Below, in pieces: positions 1 to 62,376 of a DNA stretch of 64,000 nt. Position 1 is the stretch's first letter. Each line of letters opens with the position of its first letter. The DNA comes from a virus. Lineage: Duplodnaviria > Heunggongvirae > Uroviricota > Caudoviricetes. The position numbers were made by a program, and so were the translations under genes. The stretch spans positions 109,277 through 173,276 of IMG/VR virus record IMGVR_UViG_3300012286_000299. One strand, 5' to 3'. The notes beneath the pieces were generated by a model. That model was not told where the DNA came from. It made no database searches and saw nothing but the letters and a program-made list of their open reading frames with translations.

Positions 1-1
1 T

Positions 2-1111
2 GAATATGGTCGTGTTGATTCTTCAAGTACTAAACTAACTAAATCTATGTCACAATGGGGTTCTATCTACCGTGAAAAAACTAAAAAAGGTTACAAAGAT
101 ATAACTCATTTAGTTACTGAAAAGGTAGAAGATGATTCTACAGATGAAGTAGATGAAGTATTAGCAAAATTAGATGAAGCTAAAGTAAATGCTTTTCTAG
201 ATTTAATGCAAAAGTATACTGATGGGTTAGTTAAAAATACTTATTCGGTTACTTATAAAAGTGTAACAGTTGAGCAAGTTAAAAAAGCACAGGATATCTT
301 AAATGAATTCGATGACATTAATAAAAGCGATGAGAAGGCTGTAAACGAAAAGTTAATCGAGTTATACACTGTTATTCCCCGAAGAATGGGTAAGGTTGGT
401 GATTATTTATTACCAAGATTAGATTTAGATAAAGCCTTAGAAAAAGAACAAGATAACATTGACGCGATGTCTTCTAAAGTTCAAATGTACGAGCAAGAGA
501 AAGAAAACTCTAAACAAAATAAGGATAAAAAAGAGAAACCAAAACAAACAATGTTGGATGTTTTAGGATTATCTAAAATGGTTGAAACTAAATCTAATTC
601 TGATTTAAAGTACTTAATTGATCAAATTGGTGGTAGTAGAAGAGTTGAAGGTATATTTGAATTAGTTAAACCTGAAGAAGATAAATCATTTGATAAGTGG
701 ATGAGTGGGCAGAAAAATGTTCAAACACGAACTTTAATTCATGGAACTAGATGTTCATCAGTATTATCAATTCTTAAACAAGGTTTGAAAATCAGACCTT
801 CAGGTAACTTCCAATTTTCAGGTAAAGTATATGGGAATGGTAATTACTTCTCAGAAGTAGTACAAAAATCCTTAGGTTATACTGGATATGATAATGATAA
901 AATATTATTAGTATACGAAGTACATACAGGTAATCCATTTGTTTATGATGGTTGGTATAGAGGTAATTCATTTACTTTAGATTACAAAAACTTACAACAA
1001 CGTGGATTTGATTCAACTTACGTTAAAGCAGGTAATGGATTATTAAACAGTGAAATTATTGCCTATAAAGAGGAACAATGTAGAATTAAATATATAATTT
1101 GGTTAAAATAA
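2..1111 (+). CDS. PARP-like ADP-ribosyltransferase (catalytic domain at the C-terminus); the 5' end is probably upstream of the window
   Basis: The frame is open from nt 2, with no stop before the first in-window Met at 47. The C-terminus carries the PARP catalytic signature: TLIHGTRCSSVLSILKQGLKIRP (compare PARP1 [23 protein letters not shown]), GKVYGNGNYFSEVVQKS (donor-site Tyr loop) and LLVYEV (catalytic Glu), giving an H-Y-E triad. Confidence 0.75.
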   Translation, partial: EYGRVDSSSTKLTKSMSQWGSIYREKTKKGYKDITHLVTEKVEDDSTDEVDEVLAKLDEAKVNAFLDLMQKYTDGLVKNTYSVTYKSVTVEQVKKAQDILNEFDDINKSDEKAVNEKLIELYTVIPRRMGKVGDYLLPRLDLDKALEKEQDNIDAMSSKVQMYEQEKENSKQNKDKKEKPKQTMLDVLGLSKMVETKSNSDLKYLIDQIGGSRRVEGIFELVKPEEDKSFDKWMSGQKNVQTRTLIHGTRCSSVLSILKQGLKIRPSGNFQFSGKVYGNGNYFSEVVQKSLGYTGYDNDKILLVYEVHTGNPFVYDGWYRGNSFTLDYKNLQQRGFDSTYVKAGNGLLNSEIIAYKEEQCRIKYIIWLK

Positions 1112-1139: not shown

Positions 1140-1712
1140 ATGAAAACAAGTAAGATTAACAAAGTGTTTAAAGTAGCAAAAGGTTTGTGTAAAGCAAATA
1201 ACACAGTAACTACTCTAGAAATTAAAAATGAATTGAGAAAAAAATACTCAAAAAGAAATTGGAGACAAGATGAAATTTCTCAAGTTATGGCTGATTTCTA
1301 TTTAGAGGGTAAATTTGATTACTTAGATAATGGTACATTCAGAGTGTATTCATTAGCAGGCACTAACCCAACATCAGCTCCAGCTACACAATCTACTGTA
1401 GTAAATAAAGTTGCAAAAGTAAAAGCACCAAAAGCTCCATTAACTACACAAAGAATTTCACGTACTAAAGCTTTGGATGTTATTCAAAACTCAAATGGTA
1501 AATTCTTCACAGTAACTTTCATTAAAAAAGATGGTTCACAACGTGTAATGAATGGTCAACATACATCAGATATGGGAGTAAGTCCATTAGGTTATATTTT
1601 AGTAAAAGATATGACAGCGGTACGTAAAAAAGAAACTTCAACTGTTAAAAGTGTAAATTTACAAACTATCGAAAGCATTAAATTAAATAATGTGTTGTTT
1701 AAAGTAGATTAA
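1140..1712 (+). CDS. hypothetical basic, Lys-rich protein
   Basis: 190-aa ORF tightly spaced after the upstream gene and followed by a strong intrinsic terminator. Confidence 0.5.
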   Translation: MKTSKINKVFKVAKGLCKANNTVTTLEIKNELRKKYSKRNWRQDEISQVMADFYLEGKFDYLDNGTFRVYSLAGTNPTSAPATQSTVVNKVAKVKAPKAPLTTQRISRTKALDVIQNSNGKFFTVTFIKKDGSQRVMNGQHTSDMGVSPLGYILVKDMTAVRKKETSTVKSVNLQTIESIKLNNVLFKVD

Positions 1713-2413: not shown

Positions 2414-2652
2414 TGTATACAAAAAATATTTACATAGAAGGATTTTTAACTCGTAATGGGTTTAAAAAAATGAATGAAAATGATTTTGCTAATATGAAAT
2501 GTGTTGTAAAAGTTTTTCCCAAATATTATGAAATAGTATTTAATGATGATGAATTTGGGGAAATGACAATGTATACTGATAATATTTCAATACCTCAATT
2601 AGTAGGTATTTTAACTTGGCACGGTTTAATTGATAAAGATTACAATAAATAA
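2413..2652 (+). CDS. hypothetical protein
   Basis: 79-aa ORF in an ATAATG overlap chain. Confidence 0.4.
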   Translation: MYTKNIYIEGFLTRNGFKKMNENDFANMKCVVKVFPKYYEIVFNDDEFGEMTMYTDNISIPQLVGILTWHGLIDKDYNK

Positions 2653-2927
2653 TGAGAGTAAAACATAGTAAATTTAAAGATTGTGAATTTGTCGTTAGTG
2701 TTGATACTGATGGTAAAAGTTTTACATTAGTAAAAGATCCTTATCCGGCTTATGATGTTAAACCTGATTACTACATTTATTGGAGAAATATAGGAGAAGA
2801 TATTAGAACAGCAGGAAGAACATTATTACGTACTCCTTCAGGACGTAAAGTATCACAAAGTAGAGCTACTAAAATATTACATAATATGATAGCAGCATCA
2901 AAACAACTAACATTTAGCAAATTATAA
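2652..2927 (+). CDS. hypothetical protein
   Basis: 91-aa ORF in an overlap chain. Confidence 0.4.
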   Translation: MRVKHSKFKDCEFVVSVDTDGKSFTLVKDPYPAYDVKPDYYIYWRNIGEDIRTAGRTLLRTPSGRKVSQSRATKILHNMIAASKQLTFSKL

Positions 2928-3160
2928 TGGCAGCACTATCAGACAACAAATACGATGTATTTAATTGGATTATAAAAGTTTATGATTCATGTGAGAATGT
3001 ATCTCAAATAATAACAACAGAAAAATTAATTCGAAACTTTTATAAAATGTACGACGATTATACTTTGTATGATAAGTTACAGGACTATTATTTCGAAGTA
3101 TCAGAAAGACTACAACAAAAAGTAGATAAAAAGACTAGAAAACAAATACTAAAAGGATAA
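2927..3160 (+). CDS. hypothetical protein
   Basis: 77-aa ORF in an overlap chain. Confidence 0.4.
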   Translation: MAALSDNKYDVFNWIIKVYDSCENVSQIITTEKLIRNFYKMYDDYTLYDKLQDYYFEVSERLQQKVDKKTRKQILKG

Positions 3161-3163
3161 ATT

Positions 3164-3565
3164 ATGACATTTATACAGAAATACGTAGACTTTATCTTAG
3201 ATAACATCATACAGGATAATATAAGAGTTCAGCTTTACAAACCTTTTGAAGATGGTTCAAGAATGATTACAAAGATAGGACCTACAGTACATTGTAAAGT
3301 AAAGATTGAAGTAATTGAAAAGTATACACGATCTGCTAAACTAAAACTGACCTTTGATAAATACGAAATCGAAGAACTATTCTTCATACCTTTCAGCTCA
3401 AGTCCAGAATCAATTGAAGGTAAGACACGAACTAAAATTGAAAAGATCGTAAATCAAACTTTCATTGACGATAACAGAACTGAGGATATAAAGCAGATGT
3501 ACGAACAACAACACAAGTTATTAGGAGAAGCACTATCAAAAATAGTAGGTAAGAAAAAAATATGA
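3164..3565 (+). CDS. hypothetical protein
   Basis: 133-aa ORF. Confidence 0.45.
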   Translation: MTFIQKYVDFILDNIIQDNIRVQLYKPFEDGSRMITKIGPTVHCKVKIEVIEKYTRSAKLKLTFDKYEIEELFFIPFSSSPESIEGKTRTKIEKIVNQTFIDDNRTEDIKQMYEQQHKLLGEALSKIVGKKKI

Positions 3566-3912
3566 AGCTAGATAAACAACTCACAACATTAAATCAAGTT
3601 GCTGGTGCTATGTTTTTAGCCAACTCTAGATTTAAAACACAAGCCCATATATCTTCTCAAATGCTAAATCCTGAATGCAATGTAGATCATGAGGAAAGAG
3701 TTAGATATGAAATAATACAAAATCTATCAAAGCATGCAGTTGATACTTTCTCCAAAGAAATTAAAAAACAACAAGTACATGATGGAGAAGTACATTCACT
3801 TGAATTATTTATATTTCCAACTGAAGCATTAAAACTAGCAGTAGAGTACATTATTTCAGAAATGCCACAATCAGAAATAGACAGAATAAGAACAACACCA
3901 ATTTTTATTTAA
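3562..3912 (+). CDS. hypothetical protein
   Basis: 116-aa ORF with an ATGA start/stop overlap. Confidence 0.45.
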   Translation: MKLDKQLTTLNQVAGAMFLANSRFKTQAHISSQMLNPECNVDHEERVRYEIIQNLSKHAVDTFSKEIKKQQVHDGEVHSLELFIFPTEALKLAVEYIISEMPQSEIDRIRTTPIFI

Positions 3913-4002
3913 GATTAAGTAAAATAAAATGGAAAAAGTTTGCTTATTTAGATTTTTCTTCGTATATTTAAGTATTATAAATTTAAAAAATAAATAAAAA
4001 TT

Positions 4003-4953
4003 ATGAAAAACATACACATAATACCAACTACAAAGTCAAATAAGTTGTATAAAAATCTATTAACAGATAAATTATTTATTTTAGAAAATTCATTTATGGA
4101 TGTTTCTGAATGTAATAGAGAATATCAAAACATCTACATCACTTCTGATGAAGAAATTAAAGAAGGAGATTATGGATTAATAGTAAATGAAGTATTATCA
4201 TATAGTCAAATGCACAAAAAATGGGGTATACCACAAGGTAAAAAAATCATTCTAACAACAGACCAAGACTTAATCAAAGATGGTGTACAACCTATTGATG
4301 ATGAGTTTTTAGAATGGTTTGTTAATAATCCAAGTTGTGAAAGTGTTGAGATTGAAGAATTATGTGGTGGATGTGGCAGTAATGATGGGGACTGTTGGAG
4401 AAGTAAAGAGTGTAATAAAGGGTATTATAAAAATAAATACAAAATAATCATTTCAAAAAAAGAACCTAAACAAGACATAAACACTTGTAAAAACTTTGAT
4501 AGAGAAATTGGTTGTGATTTAGCAGATTGTCTTTGTGAAAAAGAAGAACCTACTCAAGAACTAGCTAAAACAGAAATTGATTGGTCAGGTTTTCCAAAAT
4601 CAACACAAGAACAAGTTGGTTTTACTGAACCAAATATCATTGATGAATGGTTAGATAAAAATGGTAGTCCAGAAATTGCTAAACAAGTTGATGAAGAAGC
4701 AAAAGAGTTATGTGAACAAGAAACACTTGAAGAAGCTTTGGAAAGATTATCTTTAACAGATACTAAAAAATTAAGTATATTTTTAGATGGAATGAGGTAT
4801 CAACAAGAAAGAAGTTATAGTGAGGAAGAAGTTAAAATAATGTACAGAAGTTTATGGACTCCGAAGGATTTTGGGTTTTATAGTTCTTATGAAATGGAAA
4901 GTAATTTTGAAGACGATTTTAATTTATGGTTTGAACAATTTAAAAAGAAATAA
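4003..4953 (+). CDS. hypothetical protein, paralog A, with a Cys-rich insert
   Basis: 316-aa ORF behind the promoter motif at about 3955-3975. Its N-terminal 60 aa and the blocks KKIILTTDQDL, DEFLEWF and EEPTQEL.KTEIDWSG are shared with ORF 5706..6194. It carries an extra CGGCGSNDGDCWRSKEC cluster. Confidence 0.55.
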   Translation: MKNIHIIPTTKSNKLYKNLLTDKLFILENSFMDVSECNREYQNIYITSDEEIKEGDYGLIVNEVLSYSQMHKKWGIPQGKKIILTTDQDLIKDGVQPIDDEFLEWFVNNPSCESVEIEELCGGCGSNDGDCWRSKECNKGYYKNKYKIIISKKEPKQDINTCKNFDREIGCDLADCLCEKEEPTQELAKTEIDWSGFPKSTQEQVGFTEPNIIDEWLDKNGSPEIAKQVDEEAKELCEQETLEEALERLSLTDTKKLSIFLDGMRYQQERSYSEEEVKIMYRSLWTPKDFGFYSSYEMESNFEDDFNLWFEQFKKK

Positions 4954-4954
4954 G

Positions 4955-5191
4955 ATGAAACAAACAGCAGTAGAATATTTAGAAAAAGAATTTAATACGT
5001 ATGGAACATTATTAAATGCTGATTTTATAAACGCAAAAGCAATGGAAAAGCAACAACAAGGCTATAGTGAAAATGAAGTTGAATTAATTGCTAATGAAAT
5101 GGTAAATTGGGCTATTGATAATATTGGTAATCCAAACCCTCAAAGTGGTAAAAAGTTTGATGAAGTTTTGGCTAAATATAAAAACAAATAA
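4955..5191 (+). CDS. hypothetical protein
   Basis: The track ORF 4871..5191 overlaps the upstream gene. The first ATG after the upstream stop (4955, MKQTAVEYLEKEF...) is the more likely start. Confidence 0.4.
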   Translation: MKQTAVEYLEKEFNTYGTLLNADFINAKAMEKQQQGYSENEVELIANEMVNWAIDNIGNPNPQSGKKFDEVLAKYKNK

Positions 5192-5196
5192 AAATT

Positions 5197-5547
5197 ATGA
5201 AAACAGAAATTGCAGAATTAGAAATTAACCAACTAAAATCAGAAGGATTAAATTTTGATTATGAGTTTACACAAAAAAATTATCTTAATTACTTAAACTT
5301 GTGTATTGAAAAAGAAGGTTATGATATAAAAACAATTATATCAAAATTAAAACAAAATGAGAAAATTATTTTTTCACTTAATTTAGGTGATAACTTCAAT
5401 GGTTCAAAAGACCAAAAAAAAGGTAGCATTTATTGGAAACACCCACAATATGGTTTGTGCATTAGAGTTCAGTCAAGTGAAAAAAGTTTACAAGAATGGT
5501 CTTATGAATTAGAAAAAACATTTTCCTTAACTCCTTCTAACATATAA
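5197..5547 (+). CDS. hypothetical protein
   Basis: 116-aa ORF. Confidence 0.45.
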   Translation: MKTEIAELEINQLKSEGLNFDYEFTQKNYLNYLNLCIEKEGYDIKTIISKLKQNEKIIFSLNLGDNFNGSKDQKKGSIYWKHPQYGLCIRVQSSEKSLQEWSYELEKTFSLTPSNI

Positions 5548-5705
5548 AAACAAATAAAATGAATAAACAAAATTTTTTTTTATCCTAAGAAAAATAATTG
5601 GGATATTGGGTGGCCTTGCTCTCCAAGATTTTTTAGTCTTTTAGTTTTAGGTATGACAGTGGTGATTTTAATATTAACTAATAACTTTTAAAAATAAATA
5701 AGATT

Positions 5706-6194
5706 ATGAAAAACATACACATATTATCAACAGATAAACCAAGTAGGTTGTATAGAAATCTATTAACAGACAAATTATTCATTTTAGAAAATTCAGTTAT
5801 GGATGTTTCTGAATGTAATAGAGAATACCAAAACATCTACATCACTAATGATGAAGAAATTAAAGATGGTGATTGGTTTTTAACTCCGATGAATGATTTA
5901 GAATATGCAAATAAGGAATGGATAATTACTATTTCAAAATTTATACCTAAAACTAATTTTAAAAAAATCATCCTAACAACAGACCAAGATTTAGATGGAA
6001 TACAAGCTATTGATTATGAGTTTTTAGAATGGTTTTGTAAAAATAGTAGTTGTGAGTTTGTTGAGGTTCAAAAAGGATTTGCTGATGGAAGTAATTATGG
6101 TTATAACTTTCTTGATTACAAAATAATCATTACAAAAGAAGAACCTACTCAAGAACTTCCTAAAACAGAAATTGATTGGTCAGGACAAAACTAG
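5706..6194 (+). CDS. hypothetical protein, paralog B (shorter copy of 4003..4953)
   Basis: 162 aa. About 70% identical at the N-terminus to 4003..4953 and ending right after the shared TEIDWSG block. It lacks the Cys-rich insert and the C-terminal extension. Confidence 0.5.
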   Translation: MKNIHILSTDKPSRLYRNLLTDKLFILENSVMDVSECNREYQNIYITNDEEIKDGDWFLTPMNDLEYANKEWIITISKFIPKTNFKKIILTTDQDLDGIQAIDYEFLEWFCKNSSCEFVEVQKGFADGSNYGYNFLDYKIIITKEEPTQELPKTEIDWSGQN

Positions 6195-6273
6195 CAGCTG
6201 TACACTTAGGATGTGATCCATCAACAATTACAGCTAATTTAAGAGGAATAACAAAAAAAGGATTCGGTTATAT

Positions 6274-7509
6274 ATGGAAAAGAAAAACAACATAGATTCT
6301 CAGTATATTAAGCTACTAGAGGATATTTTAGAAAATGGTATTAAAAAACAAACAAGAAATGGTGAAACTATTTCAGTATTCGGAAGACAAATACGTCACG
6401 ATATGAAAGACGGTTTTCCGTTGCTTACAACCAAGAAAATGCCGTTCAAAACAATCGTAACAGAACTTCTTTGGTTCTTACGAGGTGATACCAATATTAA
6501 GTATTTGGTTGATAATAATTGTCATATTTGGGATGGTGATGCTTATAAGAATTATATAAATACCGCACCACCTACATTAGATGGGAAGTATTTATCACAA
6601 CCAGAATTTATTCATTGGATAAAAACAGATGATGAGTTTGCTAAGAAGTGGGGTGAGTTAGGTCCAATTTACGGTAAGCAATGGAGAGATATTCCTGTAA
6701 TAAAAGATGGAGATGTAGAAGGTCATAAGATATTAAGTAGTATAGACCAAATCCAAAACCTAATCAACGACCTTAAAACAAATCCAGACTCAAGACGATT
6801 AATGGTTAATGCTTGGAATGTTGGAGAATTAGACCAAATGGTTCTTCCACCTTGTCATTATGGATTTCAAGTTTATACTAGAGAGTTGACTAAACAGGAA
6901 CGTTGGATGGCTTATTGTAATAAATGTAATGAATTAAAAACAGAATCAATTATAGGTTCTACCGATGATAAAGTAATGGAAAGTTATTATCAAGAATATA
7001 ACATACCAACACGAGCAATCTCTTTAATGTGGAATCAACGTTCAGTGGATACATTCTTAGGTTTACCATTTAATATTGCTTCTTATGGATTGTTGTTGGA
7101 AATCATTGCTGAAATCGTTAACATGGTTCCTGACCAATTGATTGGTAATCTTGGTGATACACACTTGTATTCAAATCATATTGAACAAGCAAAAGAACAG
7201 ATTGGAAGAGAGCTTAATGAAGATGAGAGATATGAATTAGTAACCCAGCAAATGAGTAAACTAAGAGCGATCAGAGATGAAGATTACATTAATTACAATA
7301 TTCCAACTAGAACAAGACAACCTTATTCTTTACCTAAAGTAAGAATCAATACTGAATTCTGGAACCCTGGTACAGAAGATGGATGTGGAATGGGACCAGG
7401 AACTTATACAAAAGATATAGGTGCTCTTGTAGAAGGAATGGAAGTAAATGATTTTCAAATTGAGGATTATCAATCACATCCAACAATCAAAGCACCCTTA
7501 TCAAATTAA
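6274..7509 (+). CDS. thymidylate synthase (ThyA) family enzyme with two large insertions (TS, or dUMP hydroxymethylase-type)
   Basis: ThyA motifs are present: LWFLRGDTN, GPIYGKQWR, SRRLMVNAWNVGEL..LPPCH (active-site Cys), QRSVDTFLGLPFNIASY (Asn, hence dUMP-type) and GDTHLYSNHIEQAKEQ, with a ThyA-like C-terminus DFQIEDYQSHPTIKA. It is 411 aa against about 265 aa for ThyA, because of inserts of about 45 aa and about 60 aa. Confidence 0.75.
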   Translation: MEKKNNIDSQYIKLLEDILENGIKKQTRNGETISVFGRQIRHDMKDGFPLLTTKKMPFKTIVTELLWFLRGDTNIKYLVDNNCHIWDGDAYKNYINTAPPTLDGKYLSQPEFIHWIKTDDEFAKKWGELGPIYGKQWRDIPVIKDGDVEGHKILSSIDQIQNLINDLKTNPDSRRLMVNAWNVGELDQMVLPPCHYGFQVYTRELTKQERWMAYCNKCNELKTESIIGSTDDKVMESYYQEYNIPTRAISLMWNQRSVDTFLGLPFNIASYGLLLEIIAEIVNMVPDQLIGNLGDTHLYSNHIEQAKEQIGRELNEDERYELVTQQMSKLRAIRDEDYINYNIPTRTRQPYSLPKVRINTEFWNPGTEDGCGMGPGTYTKDIGALVEGMEVNDFQIEDYQSHPTIKAPLSN

Positions 7510-7513
7510 AAAT

Positions 7514-7735
7514 ATGACACGAACTGAAATACACCCAAACACTTTTATATTTAGTGAAATACATGAATTAGAACCAGTTTCTTTAGAAATGGTGGTTGTG
7601 GATAAACAAGATGTTGTGTTATTTGACCATAAACAAGCAGCAGAACAGTTTTTAAATACTTTCCATGAAAAAGTTTGTGATTATTTTTTAATAGAACTAG
7701 TTGAAATAATTCAACAAACTAGATTAAATAAGTAA
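7514..7735 (+). CDS. hypothetical protein
   Basis: The track ORF 7448..7735 overlaps the thyA-like gene. The ATG at 7514 (MTRTEIHPNT...) follows the upstream stop. Confidence 0.4.
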   Translation: MTRTEIHPNTFIFSEIHELEPVSLEMVVVDKQDVVLFDHKQAAEQFLNTFHEKVCDYFLIELVEIIQQTRLNK

Positions 7736-7740
7736 TTAAT

Positions 7741-8079
7741 ATGAATTTTATAATAGGGTTTTTATTAGGTTTATTGGCACAAGTATTAACTTTTATACAA
7801 TTACAAGGTCAATTCAAGTTTACTTGGATGAGAGAAAATCCATTTTTTGTAGCATTATTAGGATTACCCATTTCTTATTTATTAATTAAATCTGTTAATA
7901 GATTAGTAATACACTTTGATGGTCAATTATGGCCATCAAGGTTAATGGGTTTTTCAATAGGAGCAATAGTTTTTACTTTAATGTCACGTTGGTTATTTAA
8001 TGAACCCTTTACTTTAAAAACTGTTGTTTGTTTAACATTAGCATTTTGCATATTAATGATTCAATTATTTTGGAAATGA
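7741..8079 (+). CDS. small membrane protein
   Basis: 112 aa with three or four hydrophobic helices. Confidence 0.45.
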   Translation: MNFIIGFLLGLLAQVLTFIQLQGQFKFTWMRENPFFVALLGLPISYLLIKSVNRLVIHFDGQLWPSRLMGFSIGAIVFTLMSRWLFNEPFTLKTVVCLTLAFCILMIQLFWK

Positions 8080-8378
8080 AAAATTTAGAAACATGTCACC
8101 ATTGTGGTGAAGAAAAAGAAAACTGTTATCATGGATTTATAGCAATGACTCTTCCAATTCCTGAAGCAGAAGCTAAAAAGGAAAAATGGGGAGGGAAAGA
8201 ATGGTGGAAAAATTTAGAAAGAACAGATCTTACTAAAGAAGAGATGGAAGAGTTAGATGGACTTTGTACGTATGACCAACTACTAAATACAGTTGGAAGA
8301 GGAGTGCAGTGTGATGATTGTGGAAAAAGAGAAGCAGAACTTTATGAAATATATTATCCAAAAAGTTTGGAATCTTAA
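8076..8378 (+). CDS. small zinc-binding protein (two C-x2-C pairs)
   Basis: ATGA overlap with the upstream stop; CHHCGEEKENC...CDDCGKRE. Confidence 0.4.
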   Translation: MKNLETCHHCGEEKENCYHGFIAMTLPIPEAEAKKEKWGGKEWWKNLERTDLTKEEMEELDGLCTYDQLLNTVGRGVQCDDCGKREAELYEIYYPKSLES

Positions 8379-8413
8379 AATAAATTTTGTATATTAAATA
8401 AAAAATAAAAGTT

Positions 8414-8590
8414 ATGTTTGATACAATTTTAAAATGGTGGAACAGAAAGTGGAGTAATTGGGAACTTGATACTCCTGATTGTAAAGTATTTAATGATGAT
8501 TCATCAAAACGGCCTTGGCAGATCTACGATAGATTTAAACGTACATCTAATGATGGGTTAGTAGAGTATAAAAAAGTTATTAAATCATGA
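8414..8590 (+). CDS. hypothetical small protein
   Basis: 58-aa ORF filling a gap, with an aaaagttATG leader. Coordinates approximate to 1 nt. Confidence 0.3.
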   Translation: MFDTILKWWNRKWSNWELDTPDCKVFNDDSSKRPWQIYDRFKRTSNDGLVEYKKVIKS

Positions 8591-8763
8591 GACAAATAAA
8601 CGACCATATGAAAGACGTAGTAGGTATCGAACCCGTACAAAAACCACAACAACCACAACCTTCATTCAATCCTTTAAAATGGAATTGGACAGCAATTATT
8701 ACATGGGCAATAATGGGATTTATTGCTTTCAATATTTTTAAATACTTATTTAGTTTAATATGA
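8587..8763 (+). CDS. hypothetical small membrane protein
   Basis: 58-aa ORF with ATGA coupling and a C-terminal transmembrane helix (WNWTAIITWAIMGFIAFNIFKYLFSLI). Confidence 0.3.
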   Translation: MRQINDHMKDVVGIEPVQKPQQPQPSFNPLKWNWTAIITWAIMGFIAFNIFKYLFSLI

Positions 8764-8924
8764 GATCATTTTACGTTATTGCATTAGCAATTATTTTATT
8801 ACCTATACCTTATTTTACAGGATTACCACAATGGTTAGCTTTAATACCAACTGCTTATTTGGTTTGGATATTTATAACCTCTTCTTGGTATGCTATTAAA
8901 CGTACATTCTTTAACAAAGACTAA
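8760..8924 (+). CDS. hypothetical small membrane protein
   Basis: 54-aa ORF with two hydrophobic helices, ATGA/TAATG coupled to its neighbours. Confidence 0.3.
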   Translation: MRSFYVIALAIILLPIPYFTGLPQWLALIPTAYLVWIFITSSWYAIKRTFFNKD

Positions 8925-9882: not shown

Positions 9883-10747
9883 ATTTCTACAAGAGAATGG
9901 TTTTTTCGATGATAATACAGGAAAAATATCTCTAGCAGATAAATTAGAAGGTAAAACAAAACAGTATATGAAATTAAAAAGAATAGAAGATTACAACAAA
10001 ATACTGCCGATAGTAGAAGTCTATACAGCAGTACAATCAGAAGGAAGTAGAGCAGGATATCCTACAGTAGTAATTCGAACAAGTGGCTGTACTCACCGCT
10101 GCTGGTTCGGTGAAGGAGGTTGGTGTGATAGTCCATACACATCAATTCATCCAGAGAAAGGGAAATATTCATTCCAGAATATAATTGAAGCATACGACAG
10201 AAATCCTCACATCACAGAGATGATGTTAACTGGAGGATCACCAACAATGCATCCAGCATTAGTAAACGAATTAACACATTTTGCACATGAAAGAGGAATT
10301 TTTATTACTATGGAAACAGAGGGATCACATTACTTGGAAACAGACTTTCCGATTAATTTACTTAGCATTAGCCCTAAGTTTTCAAATTCAATTCCAGCAT
10401 TGGGAACCCGCACTCCAGGCGGTGACATCGTTGATGAAAAGATGGTTAAACAGCATAACAAACTTAGATTAAATTATGATGCAATGTCTAAGTCAATTGC
10501 GTATCATTCTGATTATCACCTGAAACCAGTGTGGGATGGAGAGGATGAAGGAGCATTGAAAGAGATTATGGCTTGCATTAAAATTCTAGATATTCCAGAA
10601 GACAAAGTTTGGTTCATGCCAGCAGGAGATTCAAGAGAGGCTTTATTCAAATCATATCCTAAAATGTTTGATTGGGTAAGAGATAATGGATATAGATTGA
10701 CTTGGAGACCACACATCATTGCATTTGAAGATAAAAGAGAAGTATAA
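9872..10747 (+). CDS. queE: radical-SAM 7-carboxy-7-deazaguanine synthase-like (QueE)
   Basis: Cys triad in SGCTHRCWFGEGGWCDSPY (non-canonical spacing, as known for some QueE), a glycine-rich SAM motif MLTGGSPTMHP, and a position adjacent to queD/folE. Confidence 0.6.
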   Translation: MESKFLQENGFFDDNTGKISLADKLEGKTKQYMKLKRIEDYNKILPIVEVYTAVQSEGSRAGYPTVVIRTSGCTHRCWFGEGGWCDSPYTSIHPEKGKYSFQNIIEAYDRNPHITEMMLTGGSPTMHPALVNELTHFAHERGIFITMETEGSHYLETDFPINLLSISPKFSNSIPALGTRTPGGDIVDEKMVKQHNKLRLNYDAMSKSIAYHSDYHLKPVWDGEDEGALKEIMACIKILDIPEDKVWFMPAGDSREALFKSYPKMFDWVRDNGYRLTWRPHIIAFEDKREV

Positions 10748-10803
10748 TATCATTTGGATATTAAAATAGAATTTATTACATTTACCTATTAAAAAAATTA
10801 TAA

Positions 10804-11499
10804 ATGACAGAAAATAGAAAAAAAGTCCACAACGATTTAGAAGTGGTACAAGTGGGATTTGCTAATGGTGTAGCACCTGGATTTCCCCTAAATGAGATTG
10901 AAAAACAAGGTATGATTGAGCAGGCTGCTGAAGCCTATGGTCAGTTTTTAACAGCATTAGGTTGTGATTGGAAAAATGATCCTAATAGTGCTGATACACC
11001 AAGACGTGTAGCTAAAGCCTATGTTAACGATCTATGGAAAGGTAGATATACTCCAATGTCTGAAATTACTTCATTCCCAAGTGATGGTTATGATGGGATT
11101 GTGATTGAAAGAAATATCCCTTTAACATCAATGTGTTCACATCACCACCAAACAATTGGAGGGGTAGTTCATATTGGGTATGTGGTAGGTGAAAATGGTA
11201 GAGTAATTGGTTTATCTAAATTAAACCGAATTGTAGAGCATTTTGGGCGTAGAGGTGCTATTCAAGAACAATTAACCTCTGCTATTCATCAAGCTGTAGA
11301 TAAAATTTGTGAAAATAATAGAGGTGTAATAGTTTCTATTGTTGGTACTCACAATTGCGTTTCTTGTAGAGGTGTTAAGCATCAAGGTGCTTCAATGATT
11401 ACAACTAAAGCATCAGGTGTTTTTATGGAGAATGGAAACTTAGCAAGAGAAGAATTCTTTGATTCAATTAAAATTAATAATGGTAATCATCCAGTATAA
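10804..11499 (+). CDS. folE: GTP cyclohydrolase I
   Basis: SMCSHHHQTIGGVVHIGYV matches the FolE zinc-site/active-site block (SMCEHH...VHIAY) in a 231-aa protein. Confidence 0.8.
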   Translation: MTENRKKVHNDLEVVQVGFANGVAPGFPLNEIEKQGMIEQAAEAYGQFLTALGCDWKNDPNSADTPRRVAKAYVNDLWKGRYTPMSEITSFPSDGYDGIVIERNIPLTSMCSHHHQTIGGVVHIGYVVGENGRVIGLSKLNRIVEHFGRRGAIQEQLTSAIHQAVDKICENNRGVIVSIVGTHNCVSCRGVKHQGASMITTKASGVFMENGNLAREEFFDSIKINNGNHPV

Positions 11500-12501: not shown

Positions 12502-13026
12502 ATGATTACAAAACCCAATGTACCTTTTATTGACGAGGTAGAAGAATTTAATGCCGTGATGGGCAAACCAAACAATTATGAACCAATTATTCCCGAAAGA
12601 AAAGAGTGGGAGTTCGTGTACAATTTCATCCTTGAGGAACTTGAAGAATATCGAGAAGCTTGCGAAGCAGGAAACATCGTGGAAGTTTTGGATGCTTTGT
12701 GCGATATTACTTATGTTGCCACTGGGAACGGTGCTATGCTACATGGCCTTAAGGGTAAGGTATGGCCGGCATATCAAGAAGTACAAGCTTCAAATTTATC
12801 GAAAGCTTGCCAAACTGAAGACGAAGCTAAAGCAACTGTCATTCAAAGATCGAGTGAACAAGGTGAAGAATGTCATTACGAAAAAGTTGGAGAATATTTC
12901 ATCGTATATCGAACAAGAGATAGAAAAGTAATGAAAAACGTAAATTACTTCAAACCAAACTTAAAACAATTCTTTACAGATAAAGAAATTCAAAAATCAT
13001 ATTTAATACAAATAACAGGAAATTAA
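12502..13026 (+). CDS. MazG-like nucleoside triphosphate pyrophosphohydrolase (putative)
   Basis: An all-alpha NTP-PPase-like motif: EELEEYREACEAGN..EVLDALCDITYVATG (E-E-x-x-E ... D metal-site pattern). Confidence 0.45.
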   Translation: MITKPNVPFIDEVEEFNAVMGKPNNYEPIIPERKEWEFVYNFILEELEEYREACEAGNIVEVLDALCDITYVATGNGAMLHGLKGKVWPAYQEVQASNLSKACQTEDEAKATVIQRSSEQGEECHYEKVGEYFIVYRTRDRKVMKNVNYFKPNLKQFFTDKEIQKSYLIQITGN

Positions 13027-13539: not shown

Positions 13540-14085
13540 ATGGATAAAAAAGTATGCAGTAAATGTAAAATTGAAAAAACTTTAGAAGAGTTTTCAATAG
13601 ATTTGTCTACTAAAAGTGGTAGAAAAAGTCAATGTAAAGAATGTAGAAAATTAATTTCTAAAAAGGAATATAAAAGTGATCCTTTATCTCATAATGTTAG
13701 AACTAGTGCTTATTATAAGGATAATAAAGAGTCTACTAGGAAGCAACAACGTGATTATGAAAGAAAACGTTTAAAAGTAGATCCCTTATTTAAATTAGGA
13801 AAATCAATGAGATGTCATTTGTATAGAATATTACAAGGACAAAAATCCATGAGTACTAAAGAATTATTAGGGTATAATGTTGAAGAATTAAAAATTCATA
13901 TTGAATCTCTTTGGGTAGAAGGAATGAATTGGGAAAATTGGGGTAAAGAATGGGAAATTGATCATATTTATCCTCTATCTCAATATTTAAAAGAAGGAGA
14001 AACTAGGCCTAGTATAATTAATAGTCTTAAAAATCTTCAACCTATAAGTAAAATTGAAAATCGAAAAAAATCAAATAAGTTATAA
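13540..14085 (+). CDS. HNH homing-type endonuclease
   Basis: N-terminal Cys4 (CSKCKIEK...CKECRK) and an HNH core EIDHIYPLSQ...NLQPISKIENRKK. Paralogous to 50911..51546. Confidence 0.65.
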   Translation: MDKKVCSKCKIEKTLEEFSIDLSTKSGRKSQCKECRKLISKKEYKSDPLSHNVRTSAYYKDNKESTRKQQRDYERKRLKVDPLFKLGKSMRCHLYRILQGQKSMSTKELLGYNVEELKIHIESLWVEGMNWENWGKEWEIDHIYPLSQYLKEGETRPSIINSLKNLQPISKIENRKKSNKL

Positions 14086-15812
14086 TGTATAAGAATATTG
14101 TTACGAATTCATTAGGGAAAAATAGATATAAGGTCATTTTATACACTGATGATGGAGTTGAAGAACATGAATTTCAAAATTATGCATATGAAGTGTGTAG
14201 CCAAAACCAGGCTACACATTTTGGTCTAAATGGAGAACCTTTAATGAAAACTACTTATTGGGATAAAACCAATCCCTTTATTCATTATCATGATATGCCT
14301 ATTCATCAAAAATTTTTAATTGATAAATATGGTACTAATGATGAACCCTCAACTACACATCAAGAAATATTTTTTGATATTGAGATTGAAATGGGAGGTG
14401 CTCTTACACCTGAGTACATTAGAAAAGCTCCAAAACCTGTTACTTCAATTGCTTGGTGGCATAAACAAGAAGATAAATGGTATATTTTAATTTTAGATAA
14501 AGATAATAAAATTGAAAAAACTACTATAGAGAATAAATATATTATTCCTGTACCTAACGAAAGAGAATTATTAAATAAGTGGTTAAATTATTTGAACAAA
14601 GTTAACCCTGATATCTTAATTGGCTATAATAGTGATTACTTCGATATACCTTACCTATACTATAGAATACTAAATCAATTAGGTGAACGTAGAGCTAATG
14701 CTTTCTCTCCAATAGGTAAAGTTAAAGAACAAAAACATTCAAATGAATCAGGAATGGTTTTTTGGAATGAAGAACAACCTATAAGAATAGAAGGAATGTA
14801 TTCTTTGGATTACATTCGCTTACATAAAAAATATTCGTTTGCAGATGAACCATCTTATAAATTAGATGCTTTAGGAGAAAAGTATTGTAAATTAGGTAAA
14901 ATTGAATATGAAGGTAGTTTAGACAGATTATTTGAAACTGATAAAGAAAAATTCATTGAATATAACTTTCGAGATGTTGAAATCCTAAAAGCACTTGATA
15001 ATAAATTTAATTATATTAGTTTAACTAAAAATCTAGCTCATAAGGGTAAAATCCATTATGATGATGTTTATCAATCATCTAAAATTCATGATGGAGCTAT
15101 TTCAGCATTCTTATTATCAGAAGATATAATTCCTCCTTCACGAGATAGAAACCCAATTAAAAAAGCTAATTACGCTGGTGGTTATTTGTTTTGTCCTAAA
15201 GCAGGGTTATATCGCTATATGTTTGATGAGGATTTAACTTCACTATACCCATCAATTATTATGTCTCTTAACATTGGTAAAGAAACATTAATAGGTAGAA
15301 TTATTGATTTAAATGATAGAAACAATCATTTAGGTTTAAATGATTTAATAAATGATATTGAAGATAGACCTCGTACTATGGAATGGTTTACTAATAAAGA
15401 TAAGTTCAGTAAAATTGATTGGACTTCTTCTAAAGTAGTTAAACTAATTCAACAATATAATTTGGCTATCTCAGCAAATGGTGTTATCTTTCGTACAGAT
15501 AAAGAGTCTGTATTATCAACTATTCTGAATAAGTGGTTTGATGAAAGGGTTTTATACAAAAATAAAATGAAAGCTGCATATAAAGCAGGAGATACAGTAG
15601 GTGGTGAGAAATATCATTTATTGCAATATACAATGAAAATCTTACTTAATTCACTTTATGGTGCTACAGCATTACCTTCATTTAGATATGGGAATGTAAT
15701 TCTATCAGAAGCAATCACTTTAAGTGGACAACGTATTATTCAAGAATCAGCACTTTGTGCTAACAGACATATGAACAAAGTTATTCGTGGTGAAATTAAA
15801 TTAGAGATATAA
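14085..15812 (+). CDS. family-B DNA polymerase, N-terminal fragment (3'-5' exonuclease plus polymerase motifs A and B)
   Basis: Exo I FDIEIEM, Exo II YNSDYFDIPYL, motif A DLTSLYPSIIMSLNIG, motif B KILLNSLYGA. Stop lies 50 aa after motif B. Confidence 0.85.
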   Translation: MYKNIVTNSLGKNRYKVILYTDDGVEEHEFQNYAYEVCSQNQATHFGLNGEPLMKTTYWDKTNPFIHYHDMPIHQKFLIDKYGTNDEPSTTHQEIFFDIEIEMGGALTPEYIRKAPKPVTSIAWWHKQEDKWYILILDKDNKIEKTTIENKYIIPVPNERELLNKWLNYLNKVNPDILIGYNSDYFDIPYLYYRILNQLGERRANAFSPIGKVKEQKHSNESGMVFWNEEQPIRIEGMYSLDYIRLHKKYSFADEPSYKLDALGEKYCKLGKIEYEGSLDRLFETDKEKFIEYNFRDVEILKALDNKFNYISLTKNLAHKGKIHYDDVYQSSKIHDGAISAFLLSEDIIPPSRDRNPIKKANYAGGYLFCPKAGLYRYMFDEDLTSLYPSIIMSLNIGKETLIGRIIDLNDRNNHLGLNDLINDIEDRPRTMEWFTNKDKFSKIDWTSSKVVKLIQQYNLAISANGVIFRTDKESVLSTILNKWFDERVLYKNKMKAAYKAGDTVGGEKYHLLQYTMKILLNSLYGATALPSFRYGNVILSEAITLSGQRIIQESALCANRHMNKVIRGEIKLEI

Positions 15813-16075
15813 TGGCATTAAAAGGACAATCAATTAGAAACGGGGTTACTATTAATATAAATGGTGTTAAAGCCGAAAAACAATTAGTTATTGATTTATC
15901 TGAAAATTGGGATGAATCACAAGAAAGATTCTTTAAGAAAATGCTTAAACAAGGAGGAAAATGTAAAGTTAATGGAAACTCATTTGAAATTATCCTCAAA
16001 GAAAGATCTGATATAGATTCAAAAGGAAATAGACCTATTAATTTACCACCAGTACCAGGAGAAAGAACATTTTAA
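15812..16075 (+). CDS. small ORF inside the polymerase split
   Basis: 87-aa ORF in a different frame, exactly filling the 264-nt insertion between the two polymerase cistrons. Confidence 0.35.
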   Translation: MALKGQSIRNGVTININGVKAEKQLVIDLSENWDESQERFFKKMLKQGGKCKVNGNSFEIILKERSDIDSKGNRPINLPPVPGERTF

Positions 16076-16076: not shown

Positions 16077-17012
16077 ATGAAACATTTAGAAGATACCCCA
16101 TGGTGGATATGTGATGAAGGTGATTTTAATTTTTGTGCTTATGTTGATACAGATTCTAATTATTTCAATGCTGAGCCATTATTGAAACATTTATATCCTG
16201 ATTTTGATGAAAAAACTGATCAAGAAAAAGATGATTTATTAGAGAAAGTAGCTCTTAAGTACCAAGATATTATAACTGAACACTATGATATACTTGCTAA
16301 AGAAGCCTTTAATATTAGTACACACCGATTAGAAATGAAAACTGAGTGTGTTATTCGTTCTGCTTATTTTAGAGCTACAAGACGTTATGCTCAATGGATT
16401 ACTAAAAAAGAAGGTATAGCAAAAGAGGAATTAGACATTAAAGGATTAGAATTTAAAAAAGCTAATTTCCCTAAATATTTTGGAAAGTTTTATCAAGAAA
16501 TTCTTGAATTAATCATTAAAGGTACTTCACAGAGTATTATAGATAAGAAAATTCATGAATTTAGACAAGAAGCAACCTCAACTGATATAGATTTTACCCT
16601 TATAGGTAACCCAACATCAGTTAAAACATTAAATGAGTATATAGCTTCCCACCCTAAACCAGGTAAAATATTATCTGAAATAAAATCAGGAGCTGGTGCA
16701 TCAGTTAAAGCTTCTATCAAACATAATGATTTATTACGATTTTGGCAATTAGATTCAAAACATAGTCAAATAGTACAAGGTGATAAAGTAAAATGGGTTT
16801 ATTTAAAAAATAACCCTTATAATATAGAAGCTATTGCATTTTTAGAATTTGATATGGCTGATAAAATCAAAGACTTCATTAATGAATATATTGATAGAGG
16901 GAAAAGTTTTGAAACTATATTACAGAAAAAACTACAAGGCTTCTATGATGACCTTGAATGGATGTTACCACCAGCAAATCCACTAATACATAAATTTTTT
17001 ACATTCAACTAA
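16077..17012 (+). CDS. family-B DNA polymerase, C-terminal fragment (motif C plus thumb)
   Basis: Own ATG; motif C CAYVDTDSNYF 22 aa from the start; KKANFPKYF (KxY-like). Confidence 0.8.
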   Translation: MKHLEDTPWWICDEGDFNFCAYVDTDSNYFNAEPLLKHLYPDFDEKTDQEKDDLLEKVALKYQDIITEHYDILAKEAFNISTHRLEMKTECVIRSAYFRATRRYAQWITKKEGIAKEELDIKGLEFKKANFPKYFGKFYQEILELIIKGTSQSIIDKKIHEFRQEATSTDIDFTLIGNPTSVKTLNEYIASHPKPGKILSEIKSGAGASVKASIKHNDLLRFWQLDSKHSQIVQGDKVKWVYLKNNPYNIEAIAFLEFDMADKIKDFINEYIDRGKSFETILQKKLQGFYDDLEWMLPPANPLIHKFFTFN

Positions 17013-18890: not shown

Positions 18891-20531
18891 ATGACAGAAA
18901 CAGTATTTGGACCCGAATTAAAATCAAAACTATTAGAAGGAGTTAGAAAACTCAATAATAGTGTATCATCTACCCTAGGACCAGCAGGTAGAACAGTATT
19001 AATTAAAGGTGAGTATGGTCAATTAACCGTAACTAAAGACGGTGTATCCGTAGCTAAGGCTTTTAAAGAATTAGAAGATCCAGTAGAATCTACAGGTGCA
19101 GAATTAGTACAAAAAGTATCAGTTAAATCCGCAAATGAAGTTGGAGATGGAACAACTACAGGTACTTTATTAACCTATGCTCTTTTAGAAGAAGGTTTAA
19201 AACATGTTAATGCAGGACAAAATGCAGTAGAAATTAAAAAAGGTATTGATGCTGCTGTAGAAGAAATTAAATCCTCACTTAACAATTTAACAGAAGATAT
19301 TTCTGATAACCAACAAATTAAAGAAGTTGCTACTATTTCAGGTAATAACGATGAAGAAATTGGTAATTTAATTGCTACTGCTTTAGAAAAAGTAGGCAGA
19401 GATGGAGTAGTTGCTATTGAAGAGTCTAAATCAGGCGAAACTTCACTTGAAGTTGTAGAAGGTATGCAGTTTGATAGAGGTTACAAATCACCTTATTTTG
19501 TAACTGATAATAATACAATGACAGCTGTATTAGATAACCCATATATTTTAATTTATAATGGTAGAATTACTAACCACCAAGAATTAATTCCAGCTTTAAC
19601 TTTAGCTAACACTGAAAAACGTTCATTATTAGTAGTAGCAGAAGATATTGATGGTGAAGCATTAGCAGTAGCTATTGTTAATAAAATGAGAGGTATTGTA
19701 AATGTTGTTGCTGTTAAAGCTCCTGATTTTGGAGATCGTAGAACAATGGCTTTAGAAGATTTAGCTATTATTACAGGTGGTCAAGTTTTATCTAAAGATA
19801 AGGGGCATAAATTAGAAAAAATTGATGTTAATACCTTAAAACAATGTTTAGGTACATCTCGTACTGCTACAATTGGAAAAGAGAAAACTACTATTGTAGA
19901 TGGTAAAGGTGAAGAAGAAGCTATTACAACTAGAGCTCAAGAAATTAAAAAACAAATTGATGACGCTGGTTCACCATTTGAAAAAGAAAAATTACAAGAG
20001 CGTTTAGGTAAGATGATTGGTGGAGTAGCTATTATTAACGTAGGTGGTAATAGTGAATTAGAAATCAAAGAGAAAAAAGATAGAGTAGAAGATGCTTTAT
20101 TCGCTACAAGAGCTGCTTTAGAAGAAGGTATTGTAGTAGGTGGTGGTACTGCTTTATTATATGCTAGAAAATCTATTACATTTGAAGGTGCAAATGATTT
20201 TGTTTTAGGTAAAAAAATAGTTTATAAAGCTGTAACAGCACCCTTCCAGAAAATTTTAACTAATGCCGGACACGATCTTGTAGAAGTACAATATTTAGGT
20301 TCTAAATTAACTGATTCTGAAAAAGGAAGTAATTGGGCAGGTCTTAATTATAAAGATTTATCAACAATGGATTTCAAATCAGCAGGTATTATTGATCCTA
20401 AAAAAGTAACTCGTATTGCATTAGAAAATGCAGCATCAGTTGCAGGTACAATTTTAACAACTGAATCTGTAATCTACGAGAAAAAAGAAGACAATAAAGA
20501 AGAAATCAATCCTATGCAAGGAATGATGTAA
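18891..20531 (+). CDS. groL: chaperonin GroEL (Cpn60)
   Basis: LGPAGRTVLI, AVKAPDFGDRR, GGGTALL and the C-terminal Gly-Met tail PMQGMM, in 546 aa. Confidence 0.9.
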   Translation: MTETVFGPELKSKLLEGVRKLNNSVSSTLGPAGRTVLIKGEYGQLTVTKDGVSVAKAFKELEDPVESTGAELVQKVSVKSANEVGDGTTTGTLLTYALLEEGLKHVNAGQNAVEIKKGIDAAVEEIKSSLNNLTEDISDNQQIKEVATISGNNDEEIGNLIATALEKVGRDGVVAIEESKSGETSLEVVEGMQFDRGYKSPYFVTDNNTMTAVLDNPYILIYNGRITNHQELIPALTLANTEKRSLLVVAEDIDGEALAVAIVNKMRGIVNVVAVKAPDFGDRRTMALEDLAIITGGQVLSKDKGHKLEKIDVNTLKQCLGTSRTATIGKEKTTIVDGKGEEEAITTRAQEIKKQIDDAGSPFEKEKLQERLGKMIGGVAIINVGGNSELEIKEKKDRVEDALFATRAALEEGIVVGGGTALLYARKSITFEGANDFVLGKKIVYKAVTAPFQKILTNAGHDLVEVQYLGSKLTDSEKGSNWAGLNYKDLSTMDFKSAGIIDPKKVTRIALENAASVAGTILTTESVIYEKKEDNKEEINPMQGMM

Positions 20532-47433: not shown

Positions 47434-47484
47434 AATTATTAAAACTTTCTTCGTATATTTAAGTATAATTTTAAAAATAAAATA

Positions 47485-55297: not shown

Positions 55298-55367
55298 AGT
55301 CAGGTAGTGTAATGGTAGCACCCGGAGGTCACACTTCTAGAACAGGTTCGAATCCTGTCCTGACTAC
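55298..55367 (+). tRNA. tRNA-like gene 1 (anticodon not confidently assigned; possibly CAC)
   Basis: Perfect 7-bp acceptor stem AGTCAGG/CCTGACT, D-arm GTGT-AATGGTA-GCAC with a GG D-loop, and a canonical T-arm ACAGG-TTCGAAT-CCTGT. The anticodon stem is irregular by hand folding. Confidence 0.5.
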
Positions 55368-62323: not shown

Positions 62324-62376
62324 AAGCCCCGGAATGGGGCTTATAAATTTTACTTCGTATATTTAAGTATAATTAA
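62324..62376 (+). promoter_or_regulatory. terminator hairpin (agcccc-ggaat-ggggct) fused to promoter-like tacttcgtatatttaagtataattaa
   Basis: Same terminator-promoter architecture as elsewhere in the window. Confidence 0.55.

Follow-up and report, generated by a model that had tools for sequence, protein, structure and literature searches.

Poly(ADP-ribose) polymerases (PARPs) encoded by phages have been catalogued since 2005-2014. PARPs in the phages Aeh1 and phi4:1 were listed by Perina et al. in 2014 (PMC4245714), and in the surveys of Iyer et al. (2021, 2022) phage PARPs/PARTs were among the most frequent viral ADP-ribosyl transferase (ART) families, with modification of host proteins proposed as their role (PMC7824862, PMC9503650). 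Cultured phages already carry the annotation as well: the proteins of Cellulophaga phages phi4:1 and phi17:2 have been labelled 'poly (ADP-ribose) polymerase' since their release, and gp111 of Klebsiella phage vB_KpM_FBKp34 was annotated with WGR, regulatory and catalytic domains, as was ORF414 of Xanthomonas phage XacN1. Here, we describe a PARP gene at the start of a 64,000-nucleotide stretch (the window) of a Caudoviricetes phage (IMG/VR record IMGVR_UViG_3300012286_000299, positions 109,277 to 173,276). An initial interpretation of the letters alone (the sequence-only reading) had implied that such genes are rare in phages, which does not agree with this record of catalogued and annotated relatives. 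We see an even chance that the gene is the core of a nucleic-acid-break-activated, reversible ADP-ribosylation module, built on a catalytically competent PARP with WGR, helical regulatory (HD) and ART domains in a large uncultured virulent phage. This mechanism is drawn by analogy with PARP1, PARP2 and bacterial PARPs, and the proposed break activation is read from the domain architecture only.

Outside the phages, PARPs have been described from bacteria such as Herpetosiphon aurantiacus and Clostridioides difficile CD160, which by description have the same minimal WGR-(helical)-CAT (catalytic) layout (PMC8120803, PMC5966428). Bacterial PARPs of this layout are DNA-dependent or highly active, and make poly(ADP-ribose) in vitro that is reversed by PARG (PMC8120803, PMC5966428). 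Whereas bacterial PARP genes pair with PARG, those of the phage clade pair with a winged helix-turn-helix (wHTH) plus barrel protein and, in some lineages, with a TARG1/DarG-like macrodomain. Alt, ModA and ModB of phage T4 are likewise phage-encoded NAD+-dependent ADP-ribosyl transferases, but they are members of the R-S-E (cholera-toxin-like) clade, with neither a WGR nor a helical domain.

The window opens inside a genuine phage gene for an ADP-ribosyl transferase of the PARP1-3 type. The frame is open from nucleotide 2, as the sequence-only reading had held, to a TAA stop at 1109-1111 on the plus strand, encoding 369 residues. A public 13.9-kb contig (L001), reached via the gene downstream of PARP, overlaps the window start with 4123 of 4123 nucleotides identical, window nucleotide 1 being L001 nucleotide 8862. 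It was used to supply the N-terminal 30 residues (MGQYCKLVMVTEANNNKFYIMEEKNGLIHI, followed by the window's EYGRVD), which gives a full-length protein of 399 amino acids (L001 8773-9972), of which the window holds the last 369. The PHROG 23333 profile was matched over positions 34-383 of 383 (E 1.7e-66), so only about 30 residues are missing from the window. The features of the gene are as follows.

2-1111, plus strand: PARP gene, codons 31-399 and the TAA stop, with a second TAA after it; the first 30 codons are L001 8773-8862
2-115, plus strand: C-terminal half of the WGR domain (full-length amino acids 31-68), from Pfam WGR, conservation and the model
116-154, plus strand: acidic low-confidence linker (amino acids 69-81), with predicted local distance difference test (pLDDT) below 50
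164-571, plus strand: helical regulatory (HD-like) domain, about amino acids 85-220, from PDB alignments that begin inside the PARP1 HD and from model helices
572-1108, plus strand: ART (PARP catalytic) domain, about amino acids 221-399, from PF00644 and Foldseek
740-742, plus strand: codon CAT of His277 in the H-Y-E triad, from PDB alignment and conservation; we take it to be H862 in the human numbering of PARP1
845-847, plus strand: codon TAC of Tyr312 in the H-Y-E triad, within GNYFSE, aligned to PARP1 GIYFAD and supported by conservation
917-919, plus strand: Glu336 within VYEV, aligned to PARP1 LLGEVALG, a non-catalytic position
1052-1054, plus strand: codon GAA of Glu381, the catalytic Glu equivalent, within LLNSEIIAY, aligned to PARP1 LLYNEYIVY and invariant (86/86 homologues)

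The profile searches placed the domain in the PARP family, with scores far beyond chance. The window fragment matched the PARP catalytic domain of Pfam (PF00644) with 61.1 bits (E 1.3e-16; gathering cut-off 26.7), and full-length relatives scored 59-68 bits. By phmmer against all PDB sequences, only chains of PARP1, PARP2, PARP3 and PARP12 were matched, with the alignment to PARP1 starting within the helical regulatory domain and extending across the NAD+ site. A PDB profile search also returned solely PARP chains (PARP1 at 62 bits). No match to R-S-E-clade ART families of the T4 Alt/ModA/ModB type was found in Pfam, PHROG or PDB searches of the protein. The assignment to the eukaryotic-type, PARP1-3-like enzymes rather than to the Alt/Mod group was thus upheld, all Pfam, PHROG and PDB matches being H-Y-E PARPs. 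Identity to the WGR-HD-CAT modules of PARP1 and PARP2 is 18-21%. Judged by its sequence, the protein is a divergent member of the already annotated phage PARP family (PHROG 23333). Using tblastn, 15 phage records with PARP matches were found, and the best cultured match was gp031 of Cellulophaga phage phi4:1 (36.6% identity over 100% of the window fragment).

Structure prediction of the upstream-extended protein revealed a three-domain PARP (WGR, HD-like helical and ART domains) with intact active-site residues, closest to PARP1 and PARP2. In the AlphaFold2 model, which was built with an alignment of 86 sequences (pLDDT 83; predicted TM-score, pTM, 0.78), a beta-rich WGR domain (amino acids 3-58, with strands within 4-45 and a helix at 46-58) is followed by a disordered acidic linker (69-81), a helical bundle (90-202, with helices at 90-110, 120-132, 141-154 and 172-202) and the ART domain. 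The top Foldseek matches in the PDB came from complexes with DNA double-strand breaks and were WGR-HD-CAT chains of PARP2 and PARP1 (6x0l_P, E 4.9e-18; 4dqy_C, TM 0.69), after which came catalytic fragments of PARP1, PARP2, PARP3 and PARP4, and the best 50 matches listed all belonged to these four proteins. With human PARP1 and PARP2 (6x0l, 4dqy, 7s6h), the phage protein shares the domain order, the fold (Foldseek E ~5e-18, TM up to 0.69), the H-Y-E triad and the Lys-Ser...Tyr NAD+ site, but it lacks the zinc fingers, BRCT domain and N-terminal tail and has a compact WGR domain. The WGR stretch carries EYGRVD, a Y-G-R version of the W-G-R motif, and a KKGY helix; in the 86 homologues, G33 and R34 never vary, and the conservation of Y32 is 90% or more. 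Pfam WGR (PF05406, cut-off 22) reached 26.5 bits in an 86%-identical relative (P0003). Because HMMER appears to align the WGR region with PARP1 in a shifted register, no residue-level reading of the DNA contacts is given. In the HD-like domain, YTVIPRRMG aligns to PARP1 YTLIPHDFG by both phmmer and hmmsearch. A WGR-like or regulatory N-terminal part had been expected upstream of the window. The WGR domain is indeed present (Pfam, Foldseek), but most of this part does not lie upstream, as the window contains the C-terminal half of the WGR domain and all of the helical domain.

The active site was examined in a conservation alignment of 86 full-length homologues (55-99% identity). H277, Y312 and E381 are invariant, and the larger set of H277-G278-T279, Y312, K319-S320, Y323 and E381 is invariant or nearly so. 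These residues align with the HGS, Tyr, Lys-Ser, Tyr and catalytic Glu of PARP1, so that the H-Y-E triad is present and both the catalytic Glu and the His-Gly NAD+ site are retained. Among the motifs named in the sequence-only reading, the LIHGTRCSSVLSILKQGLKIRPSG block aligned with a PARP1 segment and the GNGNYFSEVVQKSLGY block with GKGIYFADMVSKSANY, but the Glu of VYEV had been mistaken for the catalytic one. That residue, nearly invariant as against the full invariance of E381, aligns to PARP1 LLGEVALG, and the equivalent of the catalytic Glu is that of LLNSEIIAY. Since LLNSEIIAY and LLYNEYIVY are aligned weakly and locally, at the C-terminus common to both proteins, E381 is assigned because of its invariance, of a PARP4 profile alignment that spans the site in one stretch (profile 240-394) and of the predicted strand pattern.

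These data also bear on the idea that the gene is non-functional, either a horizontally acquired gene in decay or contamination from a eukaryote or a bacterium. A distant relative with 43% identity (L029, IMGVR_UViG_638276288_000001) has its PARP in two adjacent open reading frames (ORFs; 10001-10705 and 10712-11257), which would fit decay, and which may itself represent a pseudogene, a frameshift or a sequencing error. On the other hand, the ORF of the window is intact, the catalytic residues are invariant in the 86 homologues, the PARP genes are embedded among phage genes on contigs of 100-170 kb, and the base composition and promoter motif of the locus are the same as those of its surroundings. 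This idea is effectively refuted.

In metagenomic data, the PARP family comprised 795 proteins at E<=1e-3, many of them on contigs of 100-170 kb. Homologues were found at 24 IMG/VR loci and, among 185,579 species genomes of cellular organisms, on one contig of a metagenome-assembled genome (MAG) only. These distributions define a sizeable, phage-restricted PARP clade that is essentially absent from cellular genomes. The PARPs of phi4:1 (gp031) and phi17:2 resemble that of the window in family, length class and the presence of a partner gene directly downstream. They differ in genomic setting: the neighbours in phi4:1 are a CCA-adding enzyme and a DNA ligase instead of the NARP1/NADAR/macrodomain cluster described below, and the phage backbone is another one (the window has a T4-like PolB with <=34% identity). 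FBKp34 gp111, XacN1 ORF414 and the PARP of Aeromonas phage Aeh1 are also WGR + regulatory + catalytic phage PARPs, of about 425 amino acids (PMC4245714; PMC7824862), but they are 27-32% identical, in the catalytic part only (tblastn), and have no partner homologue alongside.

The PARP gene and a gene for a winged-helix/beta-barrel protein constitute a two-gene unit, which is followed by a hairpin-containing cassette.

1140-1712, plus strand: partner gene, 190 amino acids, beginning 28 nucleotides after the PARP stop
1714-1788 (L001 10575-10649), plus strand: cassette after the partner gene, with a hairpin at 1729-1758 and the motif TTTCGTATATTTAAGTAT at 1756-1773

The neighbour clustering took in 25 non-redundant PARP loci. 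In 23 of them, the first gene downstream of PARP is a homologue of the partner, while the other neighbours vary. Next to the more distant PARPs of L029 and L004, no such homologue was found at E<=10. In phi4:1, the homologue is gp030, 17 nucleotides after gp031. In the partner protein, a winged helix (amino acids 1-72) is joined through a basic Pro/Ala/Lys linker to a small beta-barrel (102-189). Across the family the two domains are conserved and the linker is variable, with AT-hooks in some members. No Pfam or NCBIfam family matched above threshold, and Pfam gave WYL_2 and wHTH only below threshold. Each half matches PHROGs whose function is unknown. The whole-chain Foldseek matches were the wHTH-WYL regulators BrxR, CapW and DriD (E ~5e-4). 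A sequence relationship to a solved protein was considered and rejected, as the PDB profile search gave only E >1 and NCBIfam gave nothing. In view of the sub-threshold WYL_2 matches and the PHROGs of unknown function, 'DNA-binding-like two-domain protein' is a safer description than 'WYL-family regulator', which it may also be.

The cassette belongs to a repeated element of about 75 nucleotides, composed of a GC-rich hairpin followed by TTTTTCGTATATTTAAGTAT, of which L001 holds five copies (207-281, 4243-4317, 8704-8778, 10575-10649 and 12777-12851). The copy at L001 8704-8778, outside the window, stands just before the PARP start codon, and thus two copies bracket exactly PARP and its partner. 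Such bracketing suggests that PARP and partner are a separate two-gene unit of that promoter class. The intergenic motif CTTCGTATATT[TA]AAGTAT occurs 20 times in the window against 0.66 expected, always on the plus strand and often after a GC-rich hairpin. Its sites include 1756-1773, 3958-3975, 47449-47466 and 62353-62370, and it is dense in a region of small ORFs at 47-64 kb. From these patterns, the cassettes are probably terminator/promoter elements of one temporal class. A scan for sigma-70 promoters was uninformative, with fewer matches than in shuffled sequence.

Besides the partner, several other gene types recur around PARP. In 11 of the 25 loci, a gene for an ATP-dependent DNA ligase is no more than a few kb from PARP, in at least three arrangements; one synteny group has it directly upstream of PARP, whereas in phi4:1 and L017 it is downstream. 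A macrodomain gene is found just upstream of PARP in four of the 25 loci, those of the lineage of the window (L001, L003, L007 and L008), and its protein matches Poa1p, TARG1, DarG and SCO6735. Metallophosphoesterase, RNA ligases, cREC and HAD_SAK_2 also occur near PARP loci, and a CCA-adding enzyme does so in phi4:1. The theme of these neighbourhoods is nucleic-acid end processing and ADP-ribose removal. In L001, the genes for cREC (cyclic-phosphate-processing receiver; 1766-2176) and HAD_SAK_2 (RNA-repair 'Swiss army knife' HAD; 2444-3031) lie a few kb upstream of a cluster of NAD+-related genes, which hints at a phage toolkit for RNA repair or for processing ADP-ribose derivatives (PMC7824862).

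Such a gene content raises the alternative that PARP modifies nucleic-acid ends. PARP would then ADP-ribosylate terminal DNA or RNA phosphates, as PARP1-3 and TRPT1 can in vitro, either capping phage genome ends or nicks against host exonucleases or blocking host repair, and the macrodomain would uncap them before ligation. The abundance of genes that heal or seal ends (DNA ligase, RNA ligases, metallophosphoesterase, HAD_SAK_2, cREC and CCA-adding enzyme) is in line with this possibility, and macrodomains of the TARG1/DarG type are known in general to reverse nucleic-acid ADP-ribosylation. A shortened acceptor region and an Asn at the position of PARP1 Tyr986 would also fit a mono-transferase. 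However, the sequence does not separate DNA or RNA from protein substrates, and the strictly conserved protein partner suggests an interaction at the protein level. On balance, end modification appears quite improbable as the role of the enzyme.

Immediately upstream of PARP, and outside the window, L001 carries a series of genes at 3533-8710 that encode successively a metallophosphoesterase, a PRPS-like protein, a macrodomain protein (5205-5747), a NADAR protein (5734-6207), an unknown 131-amino-acid protein, a Nuc_deoxyribosyltransferase-like protein and a 545-amino-acid protein of the NAPRTase family (7073-8710). The last of these ends 63 nucleotides before PARP and scores 327 bits to the Namat of SpbetaL1 (9w5x), versus 144 to a bacterial NAMPT and 123 to human NAMPT; at the Namat clamp-helix positions F392 and Y396, it has F and F (reference PMC12774641). 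The PRPS-like protein (4322-5218) matches TIGR01251 with 116 bits and PDB 4twb with 69 bits. By their sequences, the Namat-like protein and the PRPS-like candidate Adps likely form a NARP1 counter-defence pathway. PARP acting together with a hydrolase would set free ADP-ribose and nicotinamide, the substrates of NARP1.

It could accordingly be proposed that PARP itself belongs to an NAD+/ADP-ribose counter-defence island, acting metabolically or as a decoy by consuming NAD+ or by making ADP-ribose species against NAD+-based immunity. In this genome, PARP does lie immediately downstream of the Namat-like, NADAR, macrodomain and PRPS-like genes. However, the NARP1, NADAR and Nuc_deoxyribosyltransferase-like genes adjoin PARP in this genome only, and they were therefore rejected as conserved partners of PARP. 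The 86%-identical L003 lacks the cluster, which means that the PARP-NARP1 linkage is not conserved. Moreover, its own hairpin/promoter cassette sets the PARP unit apart from the cluster, and an NAD+ consumer would oppose NARP1. Such a role for PARP is very improbable, and the cluster may be an anti-defence island placed next to PARP by chance.

The reading of PARP as a break-activated, reversible module can be set out as a series of steps. During infection, the WGR domain would bind phage or host nucleic acid at nicks or ends, and this binding would lift the block that the helical domain imposes on NAD+ binding. PARP would then ADP-ribosylate itself and nearby proteins, the DNA-binding-like partner being the prime candidate as target, cofactor or reader. 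The mark could be removed by the phage TARG1/DarG-like macrodomain and, in this genome, also by the NADAR protein, and the released ADP-ribose and nicotinamide might be recycled to NAD+ by the adjacent NARP1-like Adps/Namat pair. The ADP-ribose signal would serve the repair or processing of breaks in phage DNA together with the ligase, a role that is suggested by the recurrent adjacency of ATP-dependent DNA ligase to PARP. By analogy, our confidence falls in the order of an active transferase, its activation by breaks via WGR and HD (as in PARP1-3 and HaPARP), the modification of itself or the partner reversed by the macrodomain, and repair with the ligase.

The same enzyme might instead serve host takeover, in which PARP would modify host proteins (RNA polymerase, translation factors or defence proteins) early in infection, as do Alt, ModA and ModB of T4, with the WGR domain as a DNA tether without break sensing. 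This role was proposed by Iyer et al. (Aravind group) for the PARPs of jumbo phages (PMC7824862). It is consistent with the promoter-like motif before PARP, which is dense in the early-looking region of small ORFs at 47-64 kb, and with the counter-defence genes (NARP1-like, NADAR and macrodomain) that adjoin PARP. However, the whole arrangement of WGR and autoinhibitory helical domain is conserved here, and wherever it has been characterised in PARPs, it serves activation by breaks. The recurrence of DNA ligase as a neighbour also speaks against host takeover, as does the lack of head-packaging fusions or contexts of the kind found with Alt-like ARTs. We regard it as unlikely.

Several observations weigh against a break-activated, reversible module. 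The synteny counts come from related phages, so the events are not independent, and the distant phage PARPs of XacN1, FBKp34, CM1 and LR756500 have no adjacent partner (E<=10). The partner barrel is weakly WYL_2-like in 12 of 42 members, all below threshold. In the genome of the window, the ligase is located 44.5 kb from PARP, and the confinement of the NARP1-like neighbours to this genome counts in the same direction. A literature search found no experimental or biochemical work on any phage PARP. With regard to the WGR domain, PF05406 is borderline in the window's own protein (P0001/L001; 21.9 bits, cut-off 22), and a conserved Tyr stands in for the Trp that gives the domain its name. For the helical domain, Pfam PARP_reg (PF02877) gave no match at E<=1 in the protein; many bacterial PARPs likewise have no Pfam PARP_reg match, though their models show a helical domain (PMC5966428).

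In the catalytic domain, the segment from the donor site to the strand of the catalytic Glu is about 20 residues shorter than in PARP1, and the residue aligned to PARP1 Tyr986 is an invariant Asn. Tyr986 of PARP1 influences the elongation and branching of the polymer. Judged from the short acceptor-side segment and the Asn, chain elongation may be impaired. The H-Y-E triad is necessary but not sufficient for the synthesis of poly(ADP-ribose), and PARP3 and PARP4 are mono-transferases. In view of the Asn and the shortening of about 20 residues, the product may be either poly- or mono-ADP-ribose.

The break-activated module may be extended to a more ambitious proposal, in which PARP, partner, ligase and macrodomain would together be a self-contained phage system for DNA-break signalling and repair. 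A nick in phage DNA would be sensed by the WGR domain, the partner would be modified or would steer PARP (in an HPF1- or histone-like manner), and ligation and erasure would follow. Such a system would be a counterpart in prokaryotic viruses, and a possible evolutionary source, of the eukaryotic PARP1/2 - XRCC1 - ligase III pathway, backed in this genome by NAD+ recycling via NARP1. We consider this extension a fairly long shot.

As for the phage itself, the GC content is 29.7%, and the sizeable ORFs are all on the plus strand. Those of the window include a split T4-like family B DNA polymerase (PolB), GroEL, glycosyltransferases, an exonuclease, an ATP-dependent DNA ligase and ThyA. The lytic setting first suggested for the gene is matched by a large, virulent-looking phage (split PolB, GroEL, ligase, exonuclease and ThyA on one strand). 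PolB is no more than 34% identical to that of any cultured phage, and a near-identity DNA search with the first 6 kb gave no match among 50,697 phage records, so no close cultured relative exists in that set. Shine-Dalgarno motifs are depleted (8 of 95 gene starts versus a background of 16%), and the leaders are A-rich, with about 60% A at positions -15 to -5 of the 95 gene starts. Together with the best PARP match in Cellulophaga phage phi4:1, these features fit a Bacteroidota host. The former label 'Bacteroidetes-type' is hence consistent with the leaders and the Cellulophaga match, but it stays unproven with such a distant PolB. An alternative genetic code was considered after a homologue was seen in an Absconditabacterales MAG, and was rejected: the stops are TAA 80, TAG 10 and TGA 6, and hardly any coding sequence is gained if TGA is read through.

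A number of additional features were observed elsewhere in the window. The two PolB ORFs, at 14085-15812 (575 amino acids) and 16077-17012 (311 amino acids), correspond to the N- and C-terminal parts of a single PHROG profile, and an ORF of 87 codons (15811-16074) lies between them. The paralogous ORFs at 4003-4953 and 5706-6194 are almost identical over roughly 50 N-terminal residues (MKNIHI...LYxNLLTDKLFILENSxMDVSECNREYQNIYIT) and differ beyond them. The thymidylate synthase (6274-7509) is unusually long, with 411 amino acids compared with 339 in the L003 homologue, which suggests that it contains insertions. A GroEL-type chaperonin is encoded at 18891-20531 (PHROG 5725, E 2.6e-142). ARAGORN predicted one tRNA-like gene with the two-base anticodon '(ca)' at 55298-55367, in the region rich in the promoter motif.

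The analysis offers new handles on phage PARPs. One is the unit of PARP and its partner, which is present in 23 of 25 loci and also in the cultivable phi4:1 (gp031/gp030). Another is the recurrent linkage of PARP to DNA ligase and to a TARG1/DarG-like eraser. In addition, one genome places an NAD+ consumer beside a NARP1-like rebuilding pathway that uses the products of ADP-ribosylation turnover. If break signalling should prove false, the gene would be an ordinary new member of an annotated family; if true, it would matter for views on where the PARP-dependent repair of eukaryotes came from and on the means by which phages withstand nuclease-based immunity.

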